Shown: positions 6,351-40,927, counted from the stretch's first letter. The stretch is DNA of 64,000 bases from an uncultured Gammaproteobacteria bacterium (GCA_964418775.1 CAYQNA010000004.1:14230-78229); one strand, 5' to 3'. Numbers and translations are program-made. The notes: generated by a model from the letters alone, not told the origin.

Positions 6351-7226
6351 TCATAATCTAAGCACACTGTCATCGTACCTCAAAATGTCACCAGAGATGT
6401 GCCCTAAACAATTTTTCACCGCAGTCTGATTACCACTCTTTGCAAAATCAAAAAGTGCAATAAAATTGGTCAAAAAACGATAGGTAGTTGCCCGTTTCCA
6501 AAACGTTGGGTCAGCATCAATATAATAATGTTGGAAAAGATGTTGTTTCTTTGCGTCAATCTCCTCGAGCAAATGATGAAATTCATACGCCGGATCAGTG
6601 ATGCAAAAATCACTCCAATCAATCACTGAAATTAAGCCGGCGTCGTAAAAAACATGGTCAAGCGAAATATCTGCGTGCACCAAGGCGAGTGGTACATTTT
6701 TGTATTCAGGATGATTTAAGTATGAATCAAACAAATTTTGTGCATACTCTAATTGTGCGGCGGTAAACAAATATTTATGTTCAATTACTTCTTGATACAG
6801 CGCGGCACATTTTTCATACCAATTAACCTGCGGCAGCATGCTGAATGTCGTCGCATCAACCTTGTGTAAATTTGATAAAAATCCCGTGAGTTTGATTAAA
6901 AAATCTTCTTGTTCGGCTTTTTTTAATTTATCATACAACACACCCCGAACAAATGGATATTCAGCAAAAAACACACCACCCTCTTCGTGTAATGTCGGCG
7001 CAGGAATACATGCACCCAAATTTTGTTCAGCTAATTTTGGCAGTACAATTGCTTCGGCTTCCATCACTGCACGCCCATCTGGTTTTTTGGGCACGCGAAA
7101 AATCTTCTCGCGCGCTGCGTCCGAATACACGGCATTATCATACCCCTCGCCCACCAACACCCAACCACGCTCGGCTGCAAAATTTTCAAGTACTGACTTT
7201 TCCATACAAAACTTACAACCCCACAC
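6351..7226 (-). CDS. Phosphotransferase-family (APH/choline-kinase-like) small-molecule kinase
   Basis: Brenner/catalytic motifs LVHADISLDHVFYD and VIDWSDFCITDPAYEF, typical of aminoglycoside-phosphotransferase-like kinases. Confidence 0.6.
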   Translation of the reverse strand: MWGCKFCMEKSVLENFAAERGWVLVGEGYDNAVYSDAAREKIFRVPKKPDGRAVMEAEAIVLPKLAEQNLGACIPAPTLHEEGGVFFAEYPFVRGVLYDKLKKAEQEDFLIKLTGFLSNLHKVDATTFSMLPQVNWYEKCAALYQEVIEHKYLFTAAQLEYAQNLFDSYLNHPEYKNVPLALVHADISLDHVFYDAGLISVIDWSDFCITDPAYEFHHLLEEIDAKKQHLFQHYYIDADPTFWKRATTYRFLTNFIALFDFAKSGNQTAVKNCLGHISGDILRYDDSVLRL

Positions 7227-7959
7227 CCGCCCCTTTCATCACTCGGTCAACATAAGAGAACAAATCAACTAATTGGTACGCCTCGTATTCGGCCGAGAAT
7301 AAAGCCCGCACTCGCGCACACTGCCGATTAACAGTCTTAACCACTTCTGGTTTTGTAATTCCCAAAGTTATAATTGTAGAAACCCCCTCGGCTCTATCCT
7401 TCTGCTCATCAGTAACATCGTCCAAGAGCTGAATAAGATAACCCAATTCACGGTAACACTCCTTTCTTTTTTCAGACAGAGCCGGGCTGACTTCCAAGGC
7501 AAACAAAAGCAATGTGCCACCACCTTTTCTTTTTTCAATGTCTTCGACTTCGGCCAAAGAAACTTCTGGATTCCGCTGGCGAATAGAATCCAATTGAGCT
7601 TGGGTCACTTCCTGCAACGCCGCAAACGCAGTGTCATTTAAATTATCCCGAACTATTTTAATTCCCGAGGCAACGACTGGCGGCAAATCTACGCCGTCAA
7701 TTTCACCAGCGACCGCTTTCTTAACATCCTCACCCATCTGTCTGGAATGACGGATATCGTATTTATCAAATTGCGCATCAAAAGCACTCATCGCACCCCC
7801 AATTGCGCCAGCTGCCATTTCTTGTTTTTTGTTTAAACCCACACCCTCCAGGCCAGCAATGAGCTTCATGAGCTCCACACCATATTCAATCCCCTTTTCC
7901 CGGCCACGTCCGAGTTCAGCAGATACTAAGCCAATTGATCCCTCGCCATGCATTCTCAT
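7213..7959 (-). CDS. Polyprenyl-synthetase-like (isoprenoid synthase fold) protein with a degenerate first Asp-rich motif
   Basis: The C-terminal half carries a SARM-like LGYLIQLLDDVTDEQKD and a following GK..TLP-like segment. The N-terminal FARM position reads FDAQFDKYD. It overlaps the downstream kinase gene by 14 nt. Confidence 0.35.
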   Translation of the reverse strand: MRMHGEGSIGLVSAELGRGREKGIEYGVELMKLIAGLEGVGLNKKQEMAAGAIGGAMSAFDAQFDKYDIRHSRQMGEDVKKAVAGEIDGVDLPPVVASGIKIVRDNLNDTAFAALQEVTQAQLDSIRQRNPEVSLAEVEDIEKRKGGGTLLLFALEVSPALSEKRKECYRELGYLIQLLDDVTDEQKDRAEGVSTIITLGITKPEVVKTVNRQCARVRALFSAEYEAYQLVDLFSYVDRVMKGAGVGL

Positions 7960-8021: not shown

Positions 8022-8043
8022 AAAAAAACACCCGAATTGGGTG
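8022..8043 (-). terminator. Intrinsic terminator (CACCC-GAATT-GGGTG hairpin + U-run on minus strand) at the island boundary
   Basis: Hairpin followed by T7 on the minus strand, immediately outside the attR repeat. Confidence 0.4.
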
Positions 8044-8049
8044 CTTTAC

Positions 8050-8094
8050 TAGAGCCACAGACCAGGATTGAACTGGTGACCTCGTCCTTACCAT
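8050..8094 (-). repeat. 45-bp direct repeat of the 3' part of tRNA-Thr(GGU) (positions 32-73 + 3 nt), intron-less; putative attR of the integrated island
   Basis: ATGGTAAGGACGAGGTCACCAGTTCAATCCTGGTCTGTGGCTCTA on the minus strand. It is identical to exon 2 plus the last 5 nt of exon 1 of the tRNA at 14623..14893. No tRNA 5' half is attached. Confidence 0.7.
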
Positions 8095-8292
8095 CAAACA
8101 ACCATACCCTGTTTCTCTCTTTTATGGCTAAGATAAAAGGAAATTTTGGGCACTTTGGCTATTTGCTGACTAGAACCAGATGACCTGTTCCCTGCCGCTG
8201 CAAACTCTTTTTTAAACCCCGTTAAATTGGGGTTATCGCAGCAAGATTTGTCTTGAATTAACAGTTTAATCATACCACAAACATATTCAGGG

Positions 8293-9057
8293 TCAAGCAG
8301 GTATTGAATCAACAAGCTCTTTAATTGCAGCAGTCTTCCAAACAAACCCAATATCAGATTCTTTATTTATTCGTCCGCTGTATATCCCAACAAGTCGCAC
8401 AGATTCCTGACTAGTGTTTAAAACCACATTTCCGTCTTCATAGCGCACCATCCCTCCTCTGTAGTAGACAATTACAGGTGACCCAGATTGCCCTGGCCTT
8501 GTGCGAGAATCAATTAAAAATAAAGGCAAGTCACGGTAGTTAATCGGAGGCTCTGAAGCTACAAATCCTGTAACCCAGATTGCAAATAAGCCACCAGCGG
8601 CTTGAGCGAATGGAAAACCTATGATATTTAATCGGTCTGCTGGCCCATACGCAATTGCAGGCGAGGCCTCTTCCAAACTATACGGAATAATGCTCACCCC
8701 TTCTAAATCAGAGAGTGGTAGAGCAACAAAATCAGCTCGCGAGCCTAATACTGGGTGTTCAATCCACCGCGGCACCTCATTACTGTCGAATAAGGGCTCA
8801 ATTTTTTCAATCCAAGAGCCTACCCGCGCAGTATGGTTATGGTAAATCAGAAACTCATTAGGGATCGCACCTGTTGTAGATAGTAGCTCACCAGTATCTT
8901 GATGACGACCAGTTACATTATGGCGGTTAGTAATAAAGTAAGGCTTTTGCGCGGAAGAATAAACTAAAAAACCTGTACCAGAAGAAATCTCCTGCCCATT
9001 AAAGCGGGTCCTCAGGAAAAGTGACATTAATGAATACTGACTAATAACAGTGGACAT
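8293..9057 (-). CDS. Trypsin-like (chymotrypsin-fold) serine peptidase
   Basis: GTGFLV…H…D…GQSGSPV catalytic-triad context (GDSGGP-like serine motif). No obvious signal peptide. Confidence 0.6.
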   Translation of the reverse strand: MSTVISQYSLMSLFLRTRFNGQEISSGTGFLVYSSAQKPYFITNRHNVTGRHQDTGELLSTTGAIPNEFLIYHNHTARVGSWIEKIEPLFDSNEVPRWIEHPVLGSRADFVALPLSDLEGVSIIPYSLEEASPAIAYGPADRLNIIGFPFAQAAGGLFAIWVTGFVASEPPINYRDLPLFLIDSRTRPGQSGSPVIVYYRGGMVRYEDGNVVLNTSQESVRLVGIYSGRINKESDIGFVWKTAAIKELVDSIPA

Positions 9058-9089
9058 AGATTTTATGATTGCAGACTAAACCTAGTTTT

Positions 9090-10034
9090 TTACAGAAGAT
9101 TATCAAAGGTAATCCGATTTACATCGTCAAGCATAGCCCTGTTTGGAAGTCCACGCAAGTAGGCACACGTCATATTTATGTCTGAATGCCCGAGCAATTG
9201 CCTTAACTTGAATATGTCAGTTCCAGAATTCAGGAGGTTAATAGCAAAGGTGTGACGAAACTTATGTGGGTTAAACTTAACACCACTTTCTCTGACGACC
9301 AAAGCAATAAAGTGCTTAAAACCGTGCATAGTAAACCTCTTATCTTCACCACTCACGACCCATAAATAAGGCGTGGTATAACGTCCTTTTCTTCGCTCGA
9401 CCAAGTACTCCTTTAGAGCAACTAAAACCTTTTGATTTAGAGGTATCCAGCGGTCACGTTTTGATTTTGAGCTTTCGGCCCTAACCCTTAATTCCTTTTT
9501 ATCCAAATCAATATCAACCAGGTGGATTCCAATAAGCTCGCCTTTTCGGATTCCACAATTAAGAAGCACAGACAGAATGGCTAAATTTCTTCGCTTAATA
9601 AGGGTATTTTTCCACTTTATGTTAAAGGAGACTGCATTAAATATGCTTTCTATACTCTCTTTTGGGATGAACTCACGCTTAGAGTAAATCACTTCTGGGT
9701 ACGGAATCCCAGAAAAAGGCCCATTACTGATATGTCCCCGCTCCCTAAGCCAGTCAAAAAATTTATTAAGTTTACTGCGATATGTAGCGACCGTTGAATT
9801 TTTAATACCCTTTTTAATCTTCCCCCTACCTACCCTACGTTCTCTTTTTTCTAGAGTACGAAAAAAATCAATCATTTTAGGCGGCGTGAGATCTGCCAAT
9901 TCTAAATCTGGATAAATTTTTAAAAGAAGCGTGAAACAGGCCCGATACCCCCTCAGGGTTTCCTCTCGCAACTTCTCGGCATAACGGCACTCCTCAATAA
10001 ATTCCTCAAAAAGCTGACTAATAGTCTTACTCAT
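9090..10034 (-). CDS. Tyrosine-type site-specific recombinase/integrase
   Basis: C-terminal catalytic motifs HKFRHTFA…LLGHSDINMTCAYL (R-H-R-Y) and an N-terminal SAM-like core-binding domain. Confidence 0.85.
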   Translation of the reverse strand: MSKTISQLFEEFIEECRYAEKLREETLRGYRACFTLLLKIYPDLELADLTPPKMIDFFRTLEKRERRVGRGKIKKGIKNSTVATYRSKLNKFFDWLRERGHISNGPFSGIPYPEVIYSKREFIPKESIESIFNAVSFNIKWKNTLIKRRNLAILSVLLNCGIRKGELIGIHLVDIDLDKKELRVRAESSKSKRDRWIPLNQKVLVALKEYLVERRKGRYTTPYLWVVSGEDKRFTMHGFKHFIALVVRESGVKFNPHKFRHTFAINLLNSGTDIFKLRQLLGHSDINMTCAYLRGLPNRAMLDDVNRITFDNLL

Positions 10035-10157
10035 ACAAAAAAGTTAATAATTACATTTGTATGAATTGAGGATAAAACAAAAAACAAACGTGTGCTAACG
10101 TTTGCTGAGTAAAATATTGGCTTATTTTAGATAAGAAACAGTACCCTGTGAGTAACT

Positions 10158-10946
10158 TTAGGAAACTTTTTCAGATTTCCATCTTAAACAGGCGCTGGAG
10201 TAGCGCTCCAGAGTAATAAACTCACCTATGTCAGAAACACCATTGTGCTGCAAATCGTAATAACACTGACGAATATAGGCCCATACTTTCTCAGGGGATT
10301 TATTTTCAATTTTACGGTTACGCTTTGGCAGTCTGTTTCTGTGTTGTACTAAATAACGATAAATACGGTCACCATCTACTGTGAAATCTGGGTTACGAAC
10401 CTTGATACAGGCTTCCAGAAATAGATAGCGCCGAGTACCATCGGCTTCAATTATGAGCTCGTCACTACCACGTCTATAAATACCTACCCACTCTTTAAGA
10501 TACAGAGCAAGATCGTCTTGAGCAGACTTATTTTTTGCAGTCTCTGTTCTGGTGTCCACACTATCATTTCCTGTGTTTTCATAGCCCAAAAGCAATGTTT
10601 CCAAAACCCGCTTTTTTACTCCAGAAAACAAAACGAGCTTTTCTAGTATTTCGCTAGAATACGGTATTTTTTGGTCTAAAATTAAATTCTTTTTAAGAGT
10701 GTCAGCTCCTGAATTAAAGTAATCTTTCCAGACCTTAGTTTTTGGCCCTAAACCCATACCCTTAAACACGTTTTCAACTTCTGCATCTGTTTTTACAAGC
10801 TTTAAAACAGTGTGGTAGATATCTTCTTGAATTTCAGGCAGATCAAGCGGTAATGCCGCTACATTGGGCATTTTAGACTCCAAAAAATAACTGCAAAAAT
10901 TCAGATCCTCTAGCAACTCTCCCAATCTTTTAGCGGTGTAATTCAT
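10158..10946 (-). CDS. Hypothetical protein (island cargo)
   Basis: 262-aa ORF with coding-like composition and no recognisable motifs. A degenerate att-core-like sequence lies immediately upstream (10948..10968). Confidence 0.5.
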   Translation of the reverse strand: MNYTAKRLGELLEDLNFCSYFLESKMPNVAALPLDLPEIQEDIYHTVLKLVKTDAEVENVFKGMGLGPKTKVWKDYFNSGADTLKKNLILDQKIPYSSEILEKLVLFSGVKKRVLETLLLGYENTGNDSVDTRTETAKNKSAQDDLALYLKEWVGIYRRGSDELIIEADGTRRYLFLEACIKVRNPDFTVDGDRIYRYLVQHRNRLPKRNRKIENKSPEKVWAYIRQCYYDLQHNGVSDIGEFITLERYSSACLRWKSEKVS

Positions 10947-11029
10947 ATGACCTCATCTTACCAAAACCACCCCAAAAATCCAGAGTAACCAAAAAGAAGG
11001 CTTTCGGCCTTCCTCTTGGATCCCGCACC

Positions 11030-11830
11030 TCAGTTTTGAATGGTTCTTAGGATACCATTACCAAAATAAAGATAACTACCCAAACCATAAACCCACTGTT
11101 CCTCCACGCTACCAGAACTAATTGTTTTATTAATATCAGTAGGCCGACCCCAGGCAGCAACCACTTGCTCCTGTGTCATTCCAATCCTGACCTTTTTGTT
11201 AGCTACGGCTCCACAAATATCCCTCTCCCAGCCTGGGTGTTCGGCACACACCTTACCTACTTTCTCTTGCTCGGCATTTTTCTTAGCAATTGTGGCTGCC
11301 TGTTCTTTGCAAAATGGATTTTGCGACTTTTTAATGCACGCGCAAAAGCCATTCCCATCCTCATTCCCCAAAATGCTATAGTTTTCGGTAGAACTAGCTA
11401 GGGATACCTTTTTAAGCACCTCTGAGGTGGTGTATTTAGAGTTAGGGTCAATAACACACACCTGGTCAATAGGTTTTTTAAGTGGTGATGTAACCCAGAT
11501 AACAAAATCACCCTTTTTCCAAAACGTAGAAGTAGCGCCTGACAGGGTACCGTTCCCCATCTTCCTTGAGGTTATCAGCGCATCTAACCCCACGTCTGAC
11601 GTAGGCGCACCCAATATTTCCTCTGCCTTGCTGCGATCAACATCAAATAGAGCTTTAGCGTCAAAAGCAGGTGTTTCTAGTGAGGCCACAAAATTCGCTC
11701 GGTCAGCTTTATTACTTTCATTAATAAATAGGCCTAGTATATTGATTATCCCAAAAAATCCAATCACGCAGGCTACTATAATACCGCAGGTTGAATGCTT
11801 CTTAGTAGGCGTACCAGCTTGCTGCTCCAT
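11030..11830 (-). CDS. Membrane-anchored hypothetical protein with Cys-rich middle region and BLIP/SmpA-like C-terminal motif (GMTQEQVVAAWGRP)
   Basis: N-terminal TM helix (IIVACVIGFFGIINILGLFI) and multiple Cys residues. Confidence 0.5.
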   Translation of the reverse strand: MEQQAGTPTKKHSTCGIIVACVIGFFGIINILGLFINESNKADRANFVASLETPAFDAKALFDVDRSKAEEILGAPTSDVGLDALITSRKMGNGTLSGATSTFWKKGDFVIWVTSPLKKPIDQVCVIDPNSKYTTSEVLKKVSLASSTENYSILGNEDGNGFCACIKKSQNPFCKEQAATIAKKNAEQEKVGKVCAEHPGWERDICGAVANKKVRIGMTQEQVVAAWGRPTDINKTISSGSVEEQWVYGLGSYLYFGNGILRTIQN

Positions 11831-11849
11831 ATAAAAAAGTTAAATATAA

Positions 11850-12040
11850 AATTGAAAAACAAAAAAGGCCCACCGTACTTTGACGGCACCCTTGCGGGGG
11901 CCCAGCACCGTTTCCAGTGCTGACTGCAACAACAATATCAAAGACGGTGAAGCCGTCTCTATGTTGTTGCAGTTTCTCGACCGTGCCTGGGGCTACTCGC
12001 CCCTAGGGTTAGGTCATATAAATTGTGCTTATAGACTACG
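11850..12040 (-). other. Structured non-coding block (multiple hairpins incl. 11-bp stem CTGCAACAACA…TGTTGTTGCAG) flanked by two minus-strand terminators; candidate small RNA or recombination site
   Basis: No ORF. At least four consecutive stem-loops are visible. There is a GC-clamp hairpin plus U-run at its 3' end (minus-strand sense, ~11866..11905). Confidence 0.3.
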
Positions 12041-12066
12041 ACAATGACATCTAAAAGTCAAATTAA

Positions 12067-12090
12067 TAAAAAAACCTTGCGAAATGCAAG
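12067..12090 (-). terminator. Intrinsic terminator (CCTTGC-ATTTC-GCAAGG + U8) downstream of the NTase/2TM gene pair
   Basis: Perfect 6-bp stem with an 8-U tract on the minus strand, 23 nt after the stop of 12113..12769. Confidence 0.5.
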
Positions 12091-12112
12091 GCTGATCTTA
12101 AAACACAAGCGA

Positions 12113-12769
12113 CTAAAAATGACGGTTAATTTCTTTGCTATGAAATTTGCAAATCAATTGACCGTGTGTTTTTCTATCACGACTGTCGTTATAATAATCC
12201 CCCTCCAGCCTCTTACCATTTACATCTTTAAAAAACTTTAGTTTGGCGCTCCCACTATGGGTCCTCATACTCAGATTACTCCTAACAGTGGATGGTTTAT
12301 TATGATAAATATAAAAAATTGACCAGACATCAAATTCATCTTTTCCAAAATTTGCTACGACACTATACGAGCAGGATTGCTGTGTATATAAATTTACTAA
12401 TATATTGGAAAAATTTTGAGTCACCTCCAAAAAACCATCATACTTATTATTACCTGACGGATCAGAAAAACTAGAAATAATTTCACACTTATACCGTCCC
12501 CCAATATATGGGATACGATGAAGCCAGCAAAAAGGCCTGAGACGCCATAACAACTTTTCGTGGGTTTTTAAAATTAAGAACAGCAGCACTGGCACTGTGA
12601 GAGGTTGAATAAGTCCCCACTGGACTAGCTGCTCAACCCAACCAAAATGGACCATACTTAACACAGATTCTGTTAAATCTGCGACATAGTTAAGCGGATA
12701 AATCAAAAACAATATTGCCAGTATGTAGAACTTATAAATTGGATTTTTTGTTTGCATACTAACGTACAC
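12113..12769 (-). CDS. Small membrane protein: two N-terminal TM helices + ~130-aa beta-rich C-terminal domain; candidate Cap15-like (2TM-β-barrel) CBASS effector
   Basis: TM segments IYKFYILAILFLIYPLNYV and LIQPLTVPVLLFLILKT. It overlaps the upstream NTase gene by 11 nt (an operon). Confidence 0.45.
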   Translation of the reverse strand: MYVSMQTKNPIYKFYILAILFLIYPLNYVADLTESVLSMVHFGWVEQLVQWGLIQPLTVPVLLFLILKTHEKLLWRLRPFCWLHRIPYIGGRYKCEIISSFSDPSGNNKYDGFLEVTQNFSNILVNLYTQQSCSYSVVANFGKDEFDVWSIFYIYHNKPSTVRSNLSMRTHSGSAKLKFFKDVNGKRLEGDYYNDSRDRKTHGQLICKFHSKEINRHF

Positions 12770-13637
12770 CTAAAGCTTTTTTCCATTTATCTTCTGCAAA
12801 AGTCACCGAACGCGCCTGATAAGCGTCTATTCCATCCCGAAGTGAAAGAGCTAACCTTGTTTCAAAGTTAGAACGTGCATTCGCGGGCCAATTAGACAAA
12901 ATGTTTTCGTGTCCGCAAACACTTAAAACAGAACCACCCGGCACGTCAAGTTTTTCCAGAATAGAATGGGAAATTCTTAAAAAAGAGCTTGGAGGGTCAC
13001 TCAAAAAAAATCTATTTTCTGCCCCATAAACCAGCGCTTCAATTTTGTGAGAGGAAATAATTTCATTTTTCGGCCCAAAATGATTGATGGCCCAGTTTTT
13101 GAACATACGGACCATTGGTTTATACCTCTCCCCAGTATCCTGATTTTTTTGTACACCGTTCTTATAGTGAATACGCGGGCGACTAACCTTTTCCACTGCA
13201 TCTCTAAAGGAGTAAATACAGATAGGATCAGCTGTGTGGTCAGGAGAAACCATAACAGCAGGAACCACATCAACACTAAAGGCACCACTAATTTTTATAC
13301 ACTTGTCACCACGTTTTACTGTCCAAGAATAACGTTTTTGATCCCCTAAGACAGTTTCAATCTCAGAAAATATCTGTTCCCAATCTATACTCTGCGGGAA
13401 ACTGTAGCCTGAGTGAACTCCGCTAAAGGTGTCAAGCCTAACAGCAACAATATCAACGTCGTTAATATCAGAAATTGCTGTATCATTTTTATACGAACCC
13501 TGAAGGAAGGTATGGTGGGTCGTTCCAAGAAGCTCTTGGATATAATTCTGCAAAATGGCGACACTGCTGATTTTTGCAGGTGTAGGCCCTGCTGTGTAGG
13601 GCTTGACTAAGTGATCGGGTATCTGGTGAGCTGGCAT
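12759..13637 (-). CDS. cGAS/DncV-like nucleotidyltransferase (CD-NTase / SMODS-like), putative cyclic-oligonucleotide synthase
   Basis: Pol-beta NTase signature GSYKNDTAISDINDVDIV (GS…[DE]h[DE]h), followed about 60 aa later by the third acidic motif SVDVVPAV. The protein has about 290 aa with a C-terminal helical region. Confidence 0.55.
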   Translation of the reverse strand: MPAHQIPDHLVKPYTAGPTPAKISSVAILQNYIQELLGTTHHTFLQGSYKNDTAISDINDVDIVAVRLDTFSGVHSGYSFPQSIDWEQIFSEIETVLGDQKRYSWTVKRGDKCIKISGAFSVDVVPAVMVSPDHTADPICIYSFRDAVEKVSRPRIHYKNGVQKNQDTGERYKPMVRMFKNWAINHFGPKNEIISSHKIEALVYGAENRFFLSDPPSSFLRISHSILEKLDVPGGSVLSVCGHENILSNWPANARSNFETRLALSLRDGIDAYQARSVTFAEDKWKKALGVR

Positions 13638-13679
13638 ATTTATTTAAAAATCCTTACCTCATCATACACCTTTTTTAAT

Positions 13680-14600
13680 TTAAATCAATGACTGGGAATT
13701 AAGCGGGTGTTTCCCTATCTGTCCCCTCAAGTGCTCGGCGCTCGCCGCCAGGTAAATAGTGGTTGTCTTAATGTCACTGTGCCCCATCATTTTTGACAAC
13801 GAAAAAATATCGCACCCACCCTCCAGCATTAAAGTAGCGAATGTGTGGCGTAGCTTGTGAATTCCAAACCTAAGGCCAGACGCGTTCATTATATTTCTGG
13901 TCAGAACTTTTAGGCCGTTTTCAGTAAAAGCGCAATCACGATTAAGTGAAGTAAAGAACTCGGGGCATTTTTTATTAAGGCGTTTACGCTCTGCCAGATA
14001 CTTGGTCAGGCTTTCGGCCAAGGTAAACGAAATTGGAATAACACGGTCCTTACCACCCTTGCCCTGGTTTACGAACAGGGACATATTTTGCAGATCAACG
14101 TCCTGGTATTTAAGGCTTAACAACTCTTTGCGGCGTATGCCTGTAAACAAGAACATTGAAAATATGGCGTGGTTGCGGTAACGCTGGTAACGATATTTGT
14201 ACGGGTAATTATAAGCCACCTCCAGCAGTCGCATTGCGTCCTGTTTAGTTAGCTTGGGTGGAAGTTTTTTATTAATCTTAGGTAACTCAATATCGTCCAT
14301 TGGATTTTTGTCCAAAAATTTATTTTCAACACACCAGCGAAAAAATACCACCAATGTTTTGTGGTAAGTCACAAATGAATTTGCCGACCATTTCTTTTCC
14401 GTCCGACCCCAAAAAAAGTAGTTACGCGTATTGTCCTCTGTCACCTCCTCTATCTCCTTAATGCCCGCGTGGGCGGCATACAACTTAATGACCTTCCGAT
14501 ACCTGACCAAGGTGGTCTGGCTAAACCCGCGAAAATACTTTGAATACTCGCAAAACCTTTCCCCCAATAAAAAAATGTCCATAAAAACAAAATATCGCAA
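13680..14600 (-). CDS. Tyrosine-type site-specific recombinase/integrase (adjacent to tRNA-Thr attachment site)
   Basis: HKLRHTFAT…MMGHSDIKTTTIYL catalytic motifs. It is paralogous to the integrase at 9090..10034. The start could be Met7 (14582). Confidence 0.85.
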   Translation of the reverse strand: MRYFVFMDIFLLGERFCEYSKYFRGFSQTTLVRYRKVIKLYAAHAGIKEIEEVTEDNTRNYFFWGRTEKKWSANSFVTYHKTLVVFFRWCVENKFLDKNPMDDIELPKINKKLPPKLTKQDAMRLLEVAYNYPYKYRYQRYRNHAIFSMFLFTGIRRKELLSLKYQDVDLQNMSLFVNQGKGGKDRVIPISFTLAESLTKYLAERKRLNKKCPEFFTSLNRDCAFTENGLKVLTRNIMNASGLRFGIHKLRHTFATLMLEGGCDIFSLSKMMGHSDIKTTTIYLAASAEHLRGQIGKHPLNSQSLI

Positions 14601-14622
14601 ATCGCTGCGATATTTCTAGTAG

Positions 14623-14893
14623 AGCCACAGACCAGGATTGAACTGGTGACCTCGTCCTTCGTGTATACCTCTATTTCGTCCCCAGAGGGCTTTATAAGAG
14701 GGCTAGACTGTATCTTAGGCTTCCTTACGGGTCAGCCTCCCTTGTCAGTCGTTCGGGCGTAAAATACGCCACGGTCTTGGCCATTGCTGGCTATTAACCG
14801 TTATTCGGGCTTCACTGTTAGATTTCTCAGACAGTGGGCACATCTGTGTGCAGATATACCATGGACGCGCTCTACCAACTGAGCTACTGCGGC
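14623..14893 (-). tRNA. tRNA-Thr(GGU) interrupted by a 198-nt group I intron between anticodon-loop positions 36 and 37
   Basis: Exon 1 is GCCGCAGTAGCTCAGTTGGTAGAGCGCGTCCATGGT (14893..14858). Exon 2 is AAGGACGAGGTCACCAGTTCAATCCTGGTCTGTGGCT (14659..14623). Joined, they give a canonical 73-nt cloverleaf with anticodon GGT. Confidence 0.7.
14660..14857 (-). ncRNA. Group I self-splicing intron (small, Azoarcus/cyanobacterial tRNA-intron-like)
   Basis: The 5' exon ends in U and pairs as a U•G wobble in a 10-bp P1 (GGUAUAUCUG / CAGAUGUGCC). J8/7-P7 reads AAGATACAGTC (consensus AAGATATAGTC) with a compensatory GACTG/CAGTC P7. P2, P8 and P9 hairpins are present. The intron ends with G. Confidence 0.6.
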
Positions 14894-15006
14894 ATTGAAT
14901 TGTACGGACTTTTTAACCTGTCGCCCGCGGCCATATTTAGTTGGGAACAGGCCATATGTCTTGGGGCATTTCGCTAAAATTAGCCACGAAATACCACTTT
15001 ACATAC

Positions 15007-15054
15007 GACCTATTCCTTACCATGGACGCGCTCTACCAACTGAGCTACTGCGGC
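15007..15054 (-). pseudogene. Truncated tRNA-Thr(GGU) 5' fragment (positions 1-48, two mismatches in anticodon stem, no T-arm/acceptor 3' strand)
   Basis: GCCGCAGTAGCTCAGTTGGTAGAGCGCGTCCATGGTAAGGAATAGGTC, then unrelated sequence. It lies 124 nt upstream of the intact tRNA-Thr. Confidence 0.5.
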
Positions 15055-15152
15055 GAAATCCTGAGTGTCGTGCCGAGCTTGCTCGAGCATGACCGAAGGA
15101 TGAGCCGCAGCACGAAGTGCAGCGGCGACAAGGGCCTGGACCCTTTCTGTCG

Positions 15153-15226
15153 TGCGCGCCGAGGGATTCGAACCCCCGACCCTCTCGGTGTAAACGAGAT
15201 GCTCTAACCAACTGAGCTAGGCGCGC
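15153..15226 (-). tRNA. tRNA-Val(TAC)
   Basis: GCGCGCCTAGCTCAGTTGGTTAGAGCATCTCGTTTACACCGAGAGGGTCGGGGGTTCGAATCCCTCGGCGCGCA. The anticodon loop is TTTACAC. Confidence 0.85.
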
Positions 15227-15315
15227 TTAAAGTGTCAGTATTATAGGAAATCCCCAGAAATAAGTCAACCCCCTATTTTAAACCCCAAATTCTGGTATAC
15301 TATGGCCACACCCCT

Positions 15316-27513: not shown

Positions 27514-27600
27514 GGAGAGATGGCTGAGCGGTTTAAGGCGACAGTCTTGAAAACTGTTGAGGATGCAAGTCCTCCGTGGGTTCGAATCCCACTCTCTCCG
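27514..27600 (+). tRNA. tRNA-Ser(TGA), type II
   Basis: GGAGAGATGGCTGAGCGGTTTAAGGCGACAGTCTTGAAAACTGT…GGGTTCGAATCCCACTCTCTCCG. Confidence 0.85.
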
Positions 27601-27624
27601 CTTGGTGCACATTGACAATTCACT

Positions 27625-27711
27625 GGAGAGTTGGCTGAGTGGTCGATAGCAACAGTTTACTAAACTGTAGTCCCTTTACGGGGACCGGGGGTTCGAATCC
27701 CTCACTCTCCG
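27625..27711 (+). tRNA. Type II (Ser-like) tRNA whose anticodon loop reads TTACTAA, i.e. anticodon ACT (unusual A34)
   Basis: GGAGAGTTGGCTGAGTGGTCGATAGCAACAGTTTACTAAACTGTAGTCCCTTTACGGGGACCGGGGGTTCGAATCCCTCACTCTCCG. The anticodon stem is a clean 5-bp ACAGT/ACTGT. Confidence 0.6.
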
Positions 27712-27743
27712 CGAAAACAGGCAAAATCACCAAAAAACACCAT

Positions 27744-27828
27744 GGAGAGGTGTCAGAGTGGCCGATCGTGCAGCTTTGCTAAAGCTGTGTTCCGCAAGGA
27801 ACCGCGGGTTCGAATCCCGCCCTCTCCG
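27744..27828 (+). tRNA. tRNA-Ser(GCT), type II
   Basis: GGAGAGGTGTCAGAGTGGCCGATCGTGCAGCTTTGCTAAAGCTG…GGGTTCGAATCCCGCCCTCTCCG. Confidence 0.85.
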
Positions 27829-27869
27829 CACATTGTCAACGCACAATTTAAACCTTAAGGGTAACCACT

Positions 27870-38361: not shown

Positions 38362-40233
38362 TTAACTGCGACCCTGCGGACGATTTTGCATTTGTGCTTC
38401 GTATTCGCGCTTAGCTTTTTCCATTTGCAAAAGCTGCTTCGGGTCAGACGTAATTAGTTGATCTTCGGTGTACGACGCGACAATTTTAATCGCCGCGTGT
38501 TTATTGCCGGCAAAGAAAATCCCCTCACCCACCGCACTCTCGAGGAGCAGGTATTTTTCACCTTCGGTCAACATAAACACGCGCTGGATCATATCCACCG
38601 CGGCTGGAGATTGACGGAGCAGTAACTGCAACGACGAGTTGGTCACAATTGCTTGACCATATTGCGAGCGCAAAAAGTCGTTCACGTCTTGCGTAATCGT
38701 AGTCACGCCCAAATAATATTTGCGACACCGTTTTACCAGCGCGTAAATAAACTTGGCACTGTCTTCGTGCGTCATGAGCCACCAGGCTTCGTCAATCACG
38801 AGCACACGTTTTTTTTGCTCGGACCGCACAATATTCCAAATGTGGTTGATGAGCGAGTAAATTGCCATTGGACGCAGTTCGTCTTCCAAATCGCGCACAC
38901 TAAAAATCACGAGTTGATTTTTTACATTTACGTTGGTTGGTGAATTGAACAAGCCCGCAAACGTACCCTCGGTATACTTACGCAACTTCAACACCAATTG
39001 TTCGGCACCTTCCATGCCTTCCAAAATATCAAGTAAATCCTGCATGATTGGCGGCTCAACCGTGGCCAAGTCAGACAGTGGTGTAATATCTTTTTTCGCA
39101 TACGTTTCCAGGAGCGCACGGTCCAAAATCGAATCTTCTTGTGGTGTAATTGCCCCAAACATAATCCGCAGCATACCCTTGATCGTAATAACTGCACTGC
39201 GAATAATATCCTCGGTCGAAATTTGCTGACCAACTGGCCGCGGCAAATCAAACGGATTGACCTTACTTTCGCTGGCGAGCGAAATGTTCACATAGGTACC
39301 ACCTACCGCTTCGCACAAATGCACGTATTCCATTTCCGGGTCAATGACAATAATTTCTGCACCCATCATTAAACTGCGGAGCACCTCAAGCTTCACCGCA
39401 TATGACTTACCCGCACCAGATGTCGCGAACACCACCATGTTTGCATTCTGGAGCGAGAAACGATCAAACAAAATCAAACTATTATTATGGCGATTAATGC
39501 CATACAAAATCCCATCATCACTGGTAAGTTCGGACGAAATAAATGGGAATGATGACGCAATCGGTGACGAGTTCATGTTGAACGTAATCGCGAGTTCATC
39601 AATACCCAGCGGCAGCGTGGACGTAAAACCCTGCTCAGCTTGATACAAAACGTTTTTACTATAAATCAACCGCGCCCCAAACAAATTTTCAATTTCTTCA
39701 GTCAGTTTTTCCAATTCTTTTTTGTCCTGACTATACATGGTTACGTAAAACGCAAATTGGAAAAAATGCTCCACACCTTGCGTCAAGTCATCGCGCAATT
39801 GTTCAATATCGCGGAGCGCCGTTTCGCGCAGCGGGTCGCGTGGCGCACCTTTTTCCGCATCGGCCGAAAGCTGCGCCTGCAGTGCACCCACTTTTTTCTT
39901 CAGCTGTTTCAAAATAATCGCCGACTTCACCGGATAAAAGAACATGCTAATATCCATGGTGTAGTTGAGGTTCAAAATTGGCGCACTCCAACCAACCGCA
40001 ATGTAGCGCGGATATGTGACTACAAACGTGGTGCGTAAATACGTGGTGCCCAACTGGATAAAGCTCGATTCCACTGAAAACGCAGATGGCGCAATCAAGT
40101 CGCGAATTGCCACCGTACCCTCGCGATAGACTTTTTCCTCTTGTACGGTCGCGAGTTCGGATGCTAATTCAGGCCCATTTTTATTGGGCTTCATGACCTT
40201 GCGACTGTTGGGTTGAATGGGCTTGAATGGCAT
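38362..40233 (-). CDS. VirB4/TraC/PrgJ-like T4SS ATPase
   Basis: Walker A VVFATSGAGKSYAVK and Walker B LVIDEAWWLM (the DEAW box typical of VirB4). The start is placed at MPFKPIQ, immediately after the upstream gene's stop. Confidence 0.75.
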   Translation of the reverse strand: MPFKPIQPNSRKVMKPNKNGPELASELATVQEEKVYREGTVAIRDLIAPSAFSVESSFIQLGTTYLRTTFVVTYPRYIAVGWSAPILNLNYTMDISMFFYPVKSAIILKQLKKKVGALQAQLSADAEKGAPRDPLRETALRDIEQLRDDLTQGVEHFFQFAFYVTMYSQDKKELEKLTEEIENLFGARLIYSKNVLYQAEQGFTSTLPLGIDELAITFNMNSSPIASSFPFISSELTSDDGILYGINRHNNSLILFDRFSLQNANMVVFATSGAGKSYAVKLEVLRSLMMGAEIIVIDPEMEYVHLCEAVGGTYVNISLASESKVNPFDLPRPVGQQISTEDIIRSAVITIKGMLRIMFGAITPQEDSILDRALLETYAKKDITPLSDLATVEPPIMQDLLDILEGMEGAEQLVLKLRKYTEGTFAGLFNSPTNVNVKNQLVIFSVRDLEDELRPMAIYSLINHIWNIVRSEQKKRVLVIDEAWWLMTHEDSAKFIYALVKRCRKYYLGVTTITQDVNDFLRSQYGQAIVTNSSLQLLLRQSPAAVDMIQRVFMLTEGEKYLLLESAVGEGIFFAGNKHAAIKIVASYTEDQLITSDPKQLLQMEKAKREYEAQMQNRPQGRS

Positions 40234-40234
40234 A

Positions 40235-40927
40235 CTAAACGTTTTCGATTTGGATATCTTGCACATTGCCCAAGGTTTCGGCAAACGCAATGTCTGGATT
40301 ATAAGTCGCGTAATACAATTCGATCAGCGCCTGCGTGTCCAGTTCAACTGGGGTTAGGCCAATGCTACTCAGACCGCCCATAATTTGCCGCACACGCGAC
40401 TGCAGTTCGCCACGGCGGGCCTGAAAACGCTCGTCCTTTAACCGCACACTACTGGCCGGACGCAACACTTCTTTAAACCGCGACCAAAAACTTTTACTTT
40501 TGTTCGACAGTGGGTCATACGGAATCACCACATAATACCGCTTGGTCATAATTTGCCCGATTTCCACTAATTCTTCCACAAAAGCCCGATAATCCGCAGT
40601 TTGTACGCGCAGCAATTCATTGGTTTGTTCTTTTTCCAAAAGACGCATTTTTTCCAAATACGGTTTAATTTGTAATTTGCGCGACTGCACGACAACCTGA
40701 ATCGGGTAATCAATTGCATTTAAAAAACTGACGTACGATGAGATAATCGCGTTCTGTTCATCTTCGGATTTAAGCGCAAAATTCAAACTCGACACGAGCA
40801 AAACAGAACGCAGTGTGCCGTCTTTTAAAATCACAACCCCATCACGAATTTCCGCAATTGGCAAATTCGCCTGCGTGGGCGGGCGGGTGTTCTTTTTCTT
40901 TTTTTTCATTTCTTGTTTGTCAGCCAT
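40235..40927 (-). CDS. T4SS-associated protein resembling the N-terminal domain of VirB4/PrgJ-type ATPases
   Basis: IAEIRDGVVILKDGTLRSVLLVSSLNFALKSEDEQNAII pattern and a poly-Lys N-terminus. It is directly upstream of and coupled with the ATPase. Confidence 0.4.
   Translation of the reverse strand: MADKQEMKKKKKNTRPPTQANLPIAEIRDGVVILKDGTLRSVLLVSSLNFALKSEDEQNAIISSYVSFLNAIDYPIQVVVQSRKLQIKPYLEKMRLLEKEQTNELLRVQTADYRAFVEELVEIGQIMTKRYYVVIPYDPLSNKSKSFWSRFKEVLRPASSVRLKDERFQARRGELQSRVRQIMGGLSSIGLTPVELDTQALIELYYATYNPDIAFAETLGNVQDIQIENV

Follow-up and report, generated by a model that had tools for sequence, protein, structure and literature searches.

The window analysed here, a stretch of 64,000 nucleotides taken as one strand from GCA_964418775.1 (CAYQNA010000004.1:14230-78229), contains an inserted element of 6,929 bp (8095-15023) that splits a host tRNA-Thr(GGU) gene at its anticodon loop and brings a complete tRNA-Thr(GGU) gene of its own, interrupted by a putative group I intron. 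That 8095-15023 is one integrative element of this kind, equipped with its own replacement tRNA, is the best overall explanation of the evidence, and we give it a probability of about 85%. The element encodes two Xer-like tyrosine recombinases, named here int1 (left end) and int2 (near the right end), and its host is probably a bacterium of the Patescibacteria (candidate phyla radiation, CPR). An earlier sequence-only reading had proposed a site-specifically integrated island at tRNA-Thr(GGU), with a tyrosine integrase adjoining the full tRNA and a displaced, intron-less tRNA 3′ fragment at the far end. All of this is borne out below, whereas its account of which gene was resident, where the left boundary lies and where the crossover took place is not.

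The evidence that carries this explanation is an empty site in a closely related genome (GCA_964390625.1, CAYMID010000042.1; locus L206, related loci being numbered with the prefix L). There a promoter-like sequence precedes tRNA-Val(tac), and after a spacer of 98 nt comes an intact, intron-less tRNA-Thr(ggt), followed by a terminator and by a 248-aa gene whose product is 93% identical to the protein encoded on the right flank of the island (7213-7959). Having neither an intron-bearing tRNA gene nor integrases, the L206 locus represents the uninterrupted state that the sequence-only reading had suggested looking for in related genomes. Collinearity with L206 extends at the left junction up to ..CCATGGTAAGGA and resumes at the right junction from ATGGTAAGGACGAGG.. 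onward. Because both junctions are collinear with the empty site, the host gene is seen to be intron-less and to be split inside a 10-bp core, ATGGTAAGGA, which spans the anticodon loop and enters the 3′ anticodon stem by three bases. The core is present at 15014-15023 (attL) and at 8085-8094 (attR), and the bacterial attachment site attB thus lies inside the host tRNA gene, intact in L206 and split at the anticodon loop in the window. Exact matches to the 248-aa flank protein were found on short contigs only, which end at the tRNA repeat, and a scan of genomes with the 497-aa protein of the left flank gave no match.

Two direct repeats agree with these boundaries. The direct repeat described earlier is real: 8050-8089 equals 14620-14659 exactly over 40 bp, and extension to 8047-8089 and 14617-14659 gives 43 bp with one mismatch. 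The intron-less copy at 8050-8094 runs on for five more nucleotides (ACCAT on the + strand, where it reads ...CTTACCAT). Read in the tRNA sense this copy is ATGGTAAGGACG..., an anticodon loop that crosses the intron site without interruption. The other repeat, absent from the sequence-only reading, is a copy of the 5′ half of the intron-bearing tRNA (14857-14893) at 15018-15054, identical at 37/37 positions, which passes uninterrupted through an intron-less anticodon loop (..CCATGGTAAGGA) and then diverges.

At the junction the target tRNA is not regenerated by island sequence, because the element arm that stands beside the host 5′ half only mimics a tRNA 3′ half: the junction at 14982-15054 reaches 18.7 bits with the Rfam tRNA model against a cut-off of 29 and is devoid of a T arm, and ARAGORN, run by default or with introns allowed, makes no tRNA call at the left junction. 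The replacement tRNA begins 121 nt downstream of this junction, in the same orientation as the host gene. Aligned related loci are unrelated upstream of the 5′ half and become homologous exactly after ..CCATGGTAA, and their arm retains of a real tRNA only five bases followed by AGGTC. The two ends of the element, when joined in silico, align with the contiguous attP-like junctions of L020 and L014 as well as with those reconstructed for L004 and L008; the features shared by these attP sites are a motif rAACAGGTC about 100 nt upstream, the sequence TTrATGGTAA, five bases followed by GGTC, and a second AAACAGGTC near the tRNA.

The same architecture recurs in related loci. A duplicated tRNA 5′ half is located 150-200 nt upstream of a full tRNA in more than 15 integrase-linked loci, and two loci are particularly informative about which halves belong together. 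In L004 the outer halves pair with each other in the acceptor stem (GCCGTTG/CAACGGC) and the anticodon stem (TCTCC/GGAGA), and the inner full tRNA has GCCGTTT/AAACGGC and TTTCC/GGAAA at these positions, two differences that are each compensated within their own gene. L008 (9400-9960, 13270-13420) is nested: two upstream 5′ halves pair in reverse order with two downstream 3′ halves (GCCGTTG with CAACGGC, GCCCGGG with CTCGGGC) around an innermost full gene that has the intron, as in a Russian-doll insertion into an intron-less element-borne tRNA, the older element in between being almost wholly deleted. On this pairing evidence, L004 and L008 indicate that the outer host halves and the inner full tRNA are separate genes.

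A scan of species-representative genomes with a pattern of the intron core returned at least 119 loci (L083-L201). Among 80 of the matches listed, the majority bear names of Patescibacteria lineages and a few are named otherwise; among the matches listed, the intron measures about 190 nt wherever the tRNA is callable, and the ARAGORN label is mostly Thr(ggt), the remainder being mislabelled. An int1 relative adjoins the intron-containing tRNA in 7 of the at least 119 loci. A near-full-length duplicate of the 5′ half is found upstream (-150 to -200) in 7/7 of these integrase-adjacent loci, and L141 alone among the loci listed has a comparable duplicate with no integrase detected. The duplicated half is therefore a mark of the element and not of the host. 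In one locus of this set, L100 (5047-5340 in the tRNA sense, about 2661-2954 as stored, and 129-407 nt beyond the tRNA end), a 22-nt fragment of the tRNA 3′ end occurs in three repeats spaced by 139 nt, downstream of an intron-containing tRNA.

The course of events can be reconstructed as follows. The element recombined with an intron-less host tRNA-Thr(GGU) inside the core, leaving the host 5′ half at 15014-15054 on one side and the 3′ half at 8053-8094 on the other. The replacement tRNA could then be read from the promoter of the host tRNA-Val, and self-splicing of its intron would be needed to yield a mature tRNA. int1 and int2 probably act jointly on the core, as XerC and XerD do, and in the excised circle the two would flank attP.

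The intron of the replacement tRNA is placed after GGU, between positions 36 and 37 (position 37 according to ARAGORN), and default ARAGORN and the Rfam tRNA model make no call at 14623-14893. Its fold was derived from an alignment of 18 sequences with RNAalifold, P3 being added as a pseudoknot, and comprises the tRNA cloverleaf together with P1, P2, P4, P5, P6, P7, P8 and P9. Paired cells amount to 97.4%, compared with 33-45% after sliding the partners by 1-3 columns, compensatory changes on both sides are observed in 39/69 pairs, and none of 500 shuffles reached the observed values. P1 pairs columns 34-39 with columns 61-66 and its inner pairs covary; the 5′ exon ends in GGU, the U of which makes the U·G pair of P1 at the 5′ splice site and is invariant in 18/18 sequences. 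Compensatory changes support P2, P4, P5, P6, P8 and P9, and P7 and most of P3 are invariant, as is the terminal G of the intron (ωG), which precedes an invariant AA of exon 2. The J8/7-P7 sequence, AAGAUACAGUC, is similar to AAGAUAUAGUC of Tetrahymena. These features lead us to class the intron, from comparative sequence analysis, as group I; an archaeal-type bulge-helix-bulge intron at 37/38 was considered and rejected, the P1-P9 fold, the U·G pair and the terminal G fitting group I and the organism being a bacterium. The cloverleaf itself is maintained by compensatory changes in the 18 relatives, and since all five anticodon-stem pairs covary across the intron, a functional spliced tRNA appears to be under selection. 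A search of the accessible literature found no paper on tRNA introns in this phylum or on this particular intron. Default ARAGORN, the Rfam tRNA model and the Rfam group I model all miss intron-bearing tRNA-Thr genes, which are probably under-annotated in metagenome-assembled genomes (MAGs) of this kind.

The two recombinases are paralogues, as had been proposed: they are 30% identical, and their conserved catalytic motifs align in a pairwise alignment judged by eye. The true start of int1 is probably the ATG at 14582. Neither protein reaches the NCBIfam cut-offs for XerA, XerC or XerD (for XerC and XerD, with cut-offs of 335 and 330 bits, int1 scores 169 and 162 and int2 scores 116 and 118); the closest solved structures of both are XerC-like, XerA and XerD, and both are devoid of an arm-binding domain. 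A role as the XerC and XerD of the host was considered and rejected, since both genes are part of the insertion and the empty site lacks them; the rarity of int1 relatives beside stand-alone intron-tRNAs in the genome scan speaks further against it. Exact sequence records were found neither for int1, with two alternative starts, nor for the CD-NTase of the cargo. Chain 14 of PDB entry 9i5v, named ‘Ribosome-associated translation inhibitor RaiA', aligns with int1 and int2 along almost their entire length, and the name may be wrong.

Relatives of int1 number 265 in metagenome contigs, of which the best 80 were examined (59-81% identical). Most of these stand beside tRNA-Thr or tRNA-Lys, many of them directly downstream of a tRNA-Thr(GGU) with or without intron and others by Thr(CGU), Thr(UGU) or Lys. 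In about 35 of the int1 loci a relative of int2 (35-52% identity) is present as well, and the two-integrase loci of this type are probably all from Patescibacteria. Three arrangements are seen. The first consists of tRNA, int1, 1-9 kb of cargo and int2, as in the window and in L004, L008, L016, L023, L026, L033, L035, L049 and L058; in L004 and L008 some 200 nt separate int2 from the distal 3′ half that comes next. The second is a contiguous series of int2, an intact attP-like site and int1 (L013, L018, L020, L021, L030, L045, L052, L054, L063, L066, L069, L072 and L080), and in the third int1 and int2 are convergent. Some of the contiguous sites have as their arm a complete, functional-looking tRNA 3′ half, of Thr(GGU) in L063 and L072 and of Lys(UUU) in L045, and the family therefore has tRNA-restoring members besides the replacement type. 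In L069 (6557-7465, 12065-13366, 14189-15061), and also in L045, the int2-attP-int1 module is placed among genes for an ArdC-like anti-restriction protein, a type IV secretion system (T4SS) coupling protein and a MobA/VirD2 relaxase. The attP of these modules is intact on contigs of 72-192 kb, which could reflect a plasmid form, a tandem array or an effect of assembly. A scan of IMG/VR with int1 gave no close relatives, only matches of 24-27% identity, on which account a phage origin was dropped, and Pfam, NCBIfam and PADLOC reveal no phage structural, lysis or repressor genes among the seven open reading frames (ORFs) of the element. The family thus consists of integrative, sometimes conjugative or mobilizable elements, and not of phages.

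These comparisons bear directly on the account of the sequence-only reading, in which the intron-bearing tRNA is the resident gene and an attP with an intron-less fragment, from the anticodon loop to the 3′ end, recombined within the 40-bp identity of exon 2, giving an island at 8050-14622. Such an account has the appeal of a classic layout, with a full tRNA immediately followed by an integrase and a 3′ fragment at the opposite end, and intron-bearing tRNA-Thr(GGU) is indeed a common stand-alone gene in Patescibacteria. It is nevertheless very improbable: the empty site of L206 is intron-less and has no intron-bearing gene, so that the intron-bearing tRNA of the window is inside the insertion, and the left breakpoint is the core at 15014-15023 rather than 14623 or 14893, which makes the element 6,929 bp long and not about 6.5 kb, with the crossover in the anticodon-loop core. 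It would moreover leave unexplained both the exact 5′-half copy at 15018-15054 and the presence of such a copy with every integrase-adjacent intron-tRNA, as against one locus with no detected integrase among the at least 119. Of the terminators said to lie outside both boundaries, that at 8025-8047 is indeed outside the right one, and the hairpin at 14589-14616 is inside the island. Improbable too, though less so, are two tandem elements, 10964-15023 (int1, the CBASS genes, the LOOT RNA and the 266-aa ORF) and 8095-10947 (the 262-aa ORF, int2 and the protease), joined at a core-like sequence at 10948-10963. That sequence matches the core at 15/17 positions with one gap, in the orientation of the real cores, two integrases are present, and attP-like junctions between elements do exist in L014 and L020. 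However, the match is marginal, its local alignment score of 12 being equalled or exceeded in 14/300 dinucleotide shuffles; its spacing to AGGTC is one base shorter than in real sites; and it falls on the beginning of the next ORF, where it covers the start codon and the ribosome-binding site. It is probably due to chance, and its use as an attachment-site remnant that would prove tandem elements is rejected. Each half would also be short of one recombinase partner, whereas in the canonical single element int1 is on the left and int2 on the right, as in nine of the loci given above for the first arrangement (L004 to L058), and about 35 loci have relatives of both recombinases, placed at opposite element ends or on either side of an intact attP-like junction. 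A break in the assembly near 10990, which might be mistaken for a variant junction, is a place where fragmented neighbouring contigs abut at low coverage.

A single tRNA-splitting element being the preferred explanation, the role of its intron is a separate matter. The intron divides the attachment core as ATGGT/AA, by which the replacement gene could have become unusable as a target for this family of integrases; because of this division it would be no target for self-integration or for a second element, and nesting of the kind found in L008 would be prevented. We therefore advance, tentatively and as somewhat doubtful, the idea that the group I intron is a shield that hides tRNA-Thr(GGU) from tRNA-splitting elements by splitting the 7-nt overlap in the anticodon loop, so that elements protect their replacement gene from themselves and from rivals. 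At close to even odds stands the view that the architecture is as described and that the intron has no role in integration, having come along with a tRNA that was captured from a lineage with a native intron or converted by such a lineage. In its favour, the at least 119 species-representative genomes have the intron in tRNA-Thr(GGU), most with no element at all; element-borne and stand-alone copies are interleaved in a crude neighbour-joining tree, which therefore indicates no single capture event; and several elements have intron-less replacement tRNAs. Against it weigh the facts that the intron is placed inside the core, exactly where strand exchange must happen, that the sole nested insertion seen (L008) hit an intron-less element tRNA and its innermost copy has the intron, and that about 80% of the replacement-type elements found are of the intron form.

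Several points weigh against the explanation preferred here, in whole or in the part concerning the intron. The architecture does not require a shield: in L004, L032, L034 and L044 the layout is unchanged and the replacement tRNA has no intron. Intron-bearing tRNA-Thr genes being common as stand-alone genes in this phylum, a donor may simply have passed the intron on. The exons of the element tRNA are identical to the host halves in the window and to the tRNA of the host lineage (L206), and in L003 (405-441 compared with 576-611) host half and element exon are likewise identical, although two acceptor-stem pairs, both compensated, distinguish the tRNAs of the window from those of L003. Identity of exons within a genome is not predicted by a freely moving element and calls for gene conversion or long co-residence; it points to a concerted evolution of the broken host gene and its replacement. 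Rfam RF00028 (Intron_gpI) gives no match at E≤10 on 14500-15150 and none at gathering score in 10 related loci, and because of this the predicted self-splicing is drawn from the structural model. A further tRNA-Thr(GGU) gene may exist elsewhere in the genome, of which 64 kb were covered, and dependence of the host on the replacement tRNA is conjectural. Current mobility is unproven, neither an excised circle nor a restored attB having been seen from this organism.

Features of the element and its insertion site (positions in the window)
Feature	Coordinates	Strand	Evidence
Promoter-like site of tRNA-Val	15240-15268	-	Promoter scan, 11/12 match
Host tRNA-Val(UAC), first gene of the tRNA-Val/tRNA-Thr unit	15153..15226	-	ARAGORN, Rfam; same arrangement in L206
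Host tRNA-Thr(GGU) 5′ half, positions 1-41, intron-less, ending in attL core ATGGTAAGGA	15014..15054	-	37/37 to element exon 1; L206 collinearity
attP right arm, degenerate mimic of tRNA 3′ half (GGAAT-AGGTC...), then spacer	14894..15013	-	Alignment of attP-like junctions
Element tRNA-Thr(GGU), complete	14623..14893	-	ARAGORN with introns allowed (tRNA-Thr(ggt) 14622-14893)
Exon 1; group I intron (putative, 198 nt); exon 2	14858-14893; 14660-14857; 14623-14659	-	ARAGORN with introns allowed
Terminator-like hairpin directly after the element tRNA, between tRNA and int1, inside the island	14589..14616	-	
int1, Xer-like tyrosine recombinase, element left end	13680..14600	-	Pfam Phage_integrase 1e-30
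CBASS CD-NTase (oligonucleotide cyclase)	12759..13637	-	Pfam SMODS; PADLOC Cyclase 8.6e-26
CBASS effector Cap15, two-transmembrane (2TM) and cyclic-dinucleotide receptor domain	12113..12769	-	Pfam Cap15_CD_rec 5.5e-23; PADLOC 2TM effector 1.1e-33
LOOT RNA (Rfam RF03000)	11885..12015	-	75.9 bits against cut-off 46.4, full length
Cargo ORF, 266 aa	11030..11830	-	No significant family match (Pfam, NCBIfam, PADLOC); no relative in related loci
Core-like sequence TGGTAAG-ATGAGGTCA (tRNA sense)	10948..10963	-	Overlaps ribosome-binding site and start codon of next ORF
Cargo ORF, 262 aa	10158..10946	-	No family match (Pfam, NCBIfam, PADLOC)
int2, Xer-like tyrosine recombinase, near element right end	9090..10034	-	Pfam 2.4e-31
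Trypsin-like serine protease	8293..9057	-	Pfam Trypsin_2 9.6e-09; PADLOC candidate defence family PDC-S45 5.7e-17
attP left arm, family motif AACAGGTC at 8182-8189, ending ..GTTTG before the core	8095..8292	-	Alignment of attP-like junctions
Host tRNA-Thr(GGU) 3′ half, positions 32-73, intron-less, beginning with attR core	8053..8094	-	Repeat; L206 collinearity from the core
Host terminator of the tRNA-Val/tRNA-Thr unit, terminator-like hairpin outside the right boundary	8025..8047	-	Conserved in L206

The cargo between the two ends of the element includes the second integrase and the trypsin-like protease noted earlier, both confirmed by Pfam, and a pair of genes predicted to form a type I cyclic-oligonucleotide-based antiphage signalling system (CBASS). 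The genes for the cyclase and the Cap15 effector overlap by 11 nt, and the adjoining ORFs show no other CBASS match, so that Cap2 and Cap3 are absent; the scores of the CD-NTase with the NCBIfam CBASS cyclase models are below cut-off. The element also contains a LOOT RNA. A search model built from four copies detected LOOT in 19/79 sources of int1-family elements and gave no match in the control, 676 kb of Patescibacteria DNA around stand-alone intron-tRNAs. The positive loci are the window, L004, L016, L023, L026, L031-L033, L035, L040, L042, L044, L049, L050, L058, L065, L067, L075 and L076; in these the RNA, which may be on either strand, is downstream of int1 in every case and is flanked by the two integrases in all those where int2 can be seen.

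The closest known counterpart is the tRNA-dependent lysogeny of the actinobacteriophages Fionnbharth, Cluster L and Gaia, in which a tyrosine integrase uses an attB in a host tRNA gene, the common core is about 10 bp, the junction does not rebuild the tRNA and the phage carries the cognate tRNA (Guerrero-Bustamante & Hatfull 2024, PMC10865867). The actinophage integrase family also includes ‘standard' relatives with a functional 3′ half in attP, such as Boilgate and Omega (PMC10865867). The element of the window resembles this system in its attB within a tRNA gene, its 10-bp core, the absence of rebuilding, the complete tRNA on the element and an integrase family that has standard members as well, here L063 and L072. 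It differs in being a non-phage element of 6.9 kb, which lacks virion and repressor genes and is without close relatives in IMG/VR; in its host (Patescibacteria as opposed to Actinobacteria) and its target, tRNA-Thr(GGU); in its two Xer-like recombinases with no arm-binding domain in place of a single lambda-like Int; and in its replacement tRNA, which lies beside attP and has a group I intron splitting the core. What is new relative to tRNA-dependent lysogeny is thus the non-phage element, the recombinase pair and the intron that splits the attachment core.

Other known systems share parts of this architecture. With Islander-type islands the element has in common an integrase by the tRNA, a distal 3′-fragment direct repeat, a crossover in the anticodon loop and accessory or defence cargo; unlike them, its junction does not restore the target, a separate complete gene is carried and the displaced 5′ half stands on the other side. 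An anticodon-loop sublocation class of tRNA-integrating islands was reportedly defined by Williams in 2002. Group I introns are found in bacterial tRNA-Leu(UAA) and tRNA-fMet of cyanobacteria, tRNA-Ile of Azoarcus and tRNA-Arg of Agrobacterium. The intron described here is like these in its size of about 200 nt, the absence of an ORF, its location in the anticodon loop, a P1 involving the anticodon, the splice-site U·G, the P3-P9 core and the terminal G, and unlike them in residing in a Patescibacteria tRNA-Thr(GGU), in being negative for RF00028 and in being carried on an integrative element. XerC/XerD and IMEX (integrative mobile elements exploiting Xer) likewise rely on two paralogous simple Xer-type tyrosine recombinases, but here both are encoded by the element and fall below the XerC, XerD and XerA cut-offs, and the target is an anticodon loop and not dif.

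The strategy of breaking a tRNA gene and bringing one's own, described only in 2024 in actinophages, evidently extends to small non-phage defence islands of Patescibacteria and probably also to conjugative elements in this phylum. Patescibacteria have minimal genomes, in which tRNA genes are probably present as single copies. The division of the attachment site by the intron of the replacement gene is a concrete candidate explanation for the persistence of a bacterial tRNA intron. If the intron does act as a shield, it would provide a selective function for a bacterial tRNA intron and would count among the outcomes of an arms race that sets hosts against tRNA-targeting mobile elements, and the same pressure would help to explain why the native tRNA-Thr(GGU) of many Patescibacteria retains it. 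In practical terms, neither default tRNA finders nor Rfam recognise the intron-bearing tRNA-Thr or the split halves; Patescibacteria MAGs may therefore score as lacking tRNA-Thr(GGU), and islands may be mis-delimited. The orphan LOOT RNA gains a defined setting in two-recombinase elements.

Outside the island, the window has three tandem tRNA-Ser genes at 27514-27829 (+), for the middle one of which ARAGORN gives the anticodon ACT (A34), unusual for a bacterial tRNA-Ser. A TraG/VirB4-like P-loop ATPase at 38362-40290 (-), with neighbours to about 46300, stands by a 983-aa protein that has no Pfam match, and this cluster, about 25 kb from the island, may be one for type IV secretion or DNA uptake.

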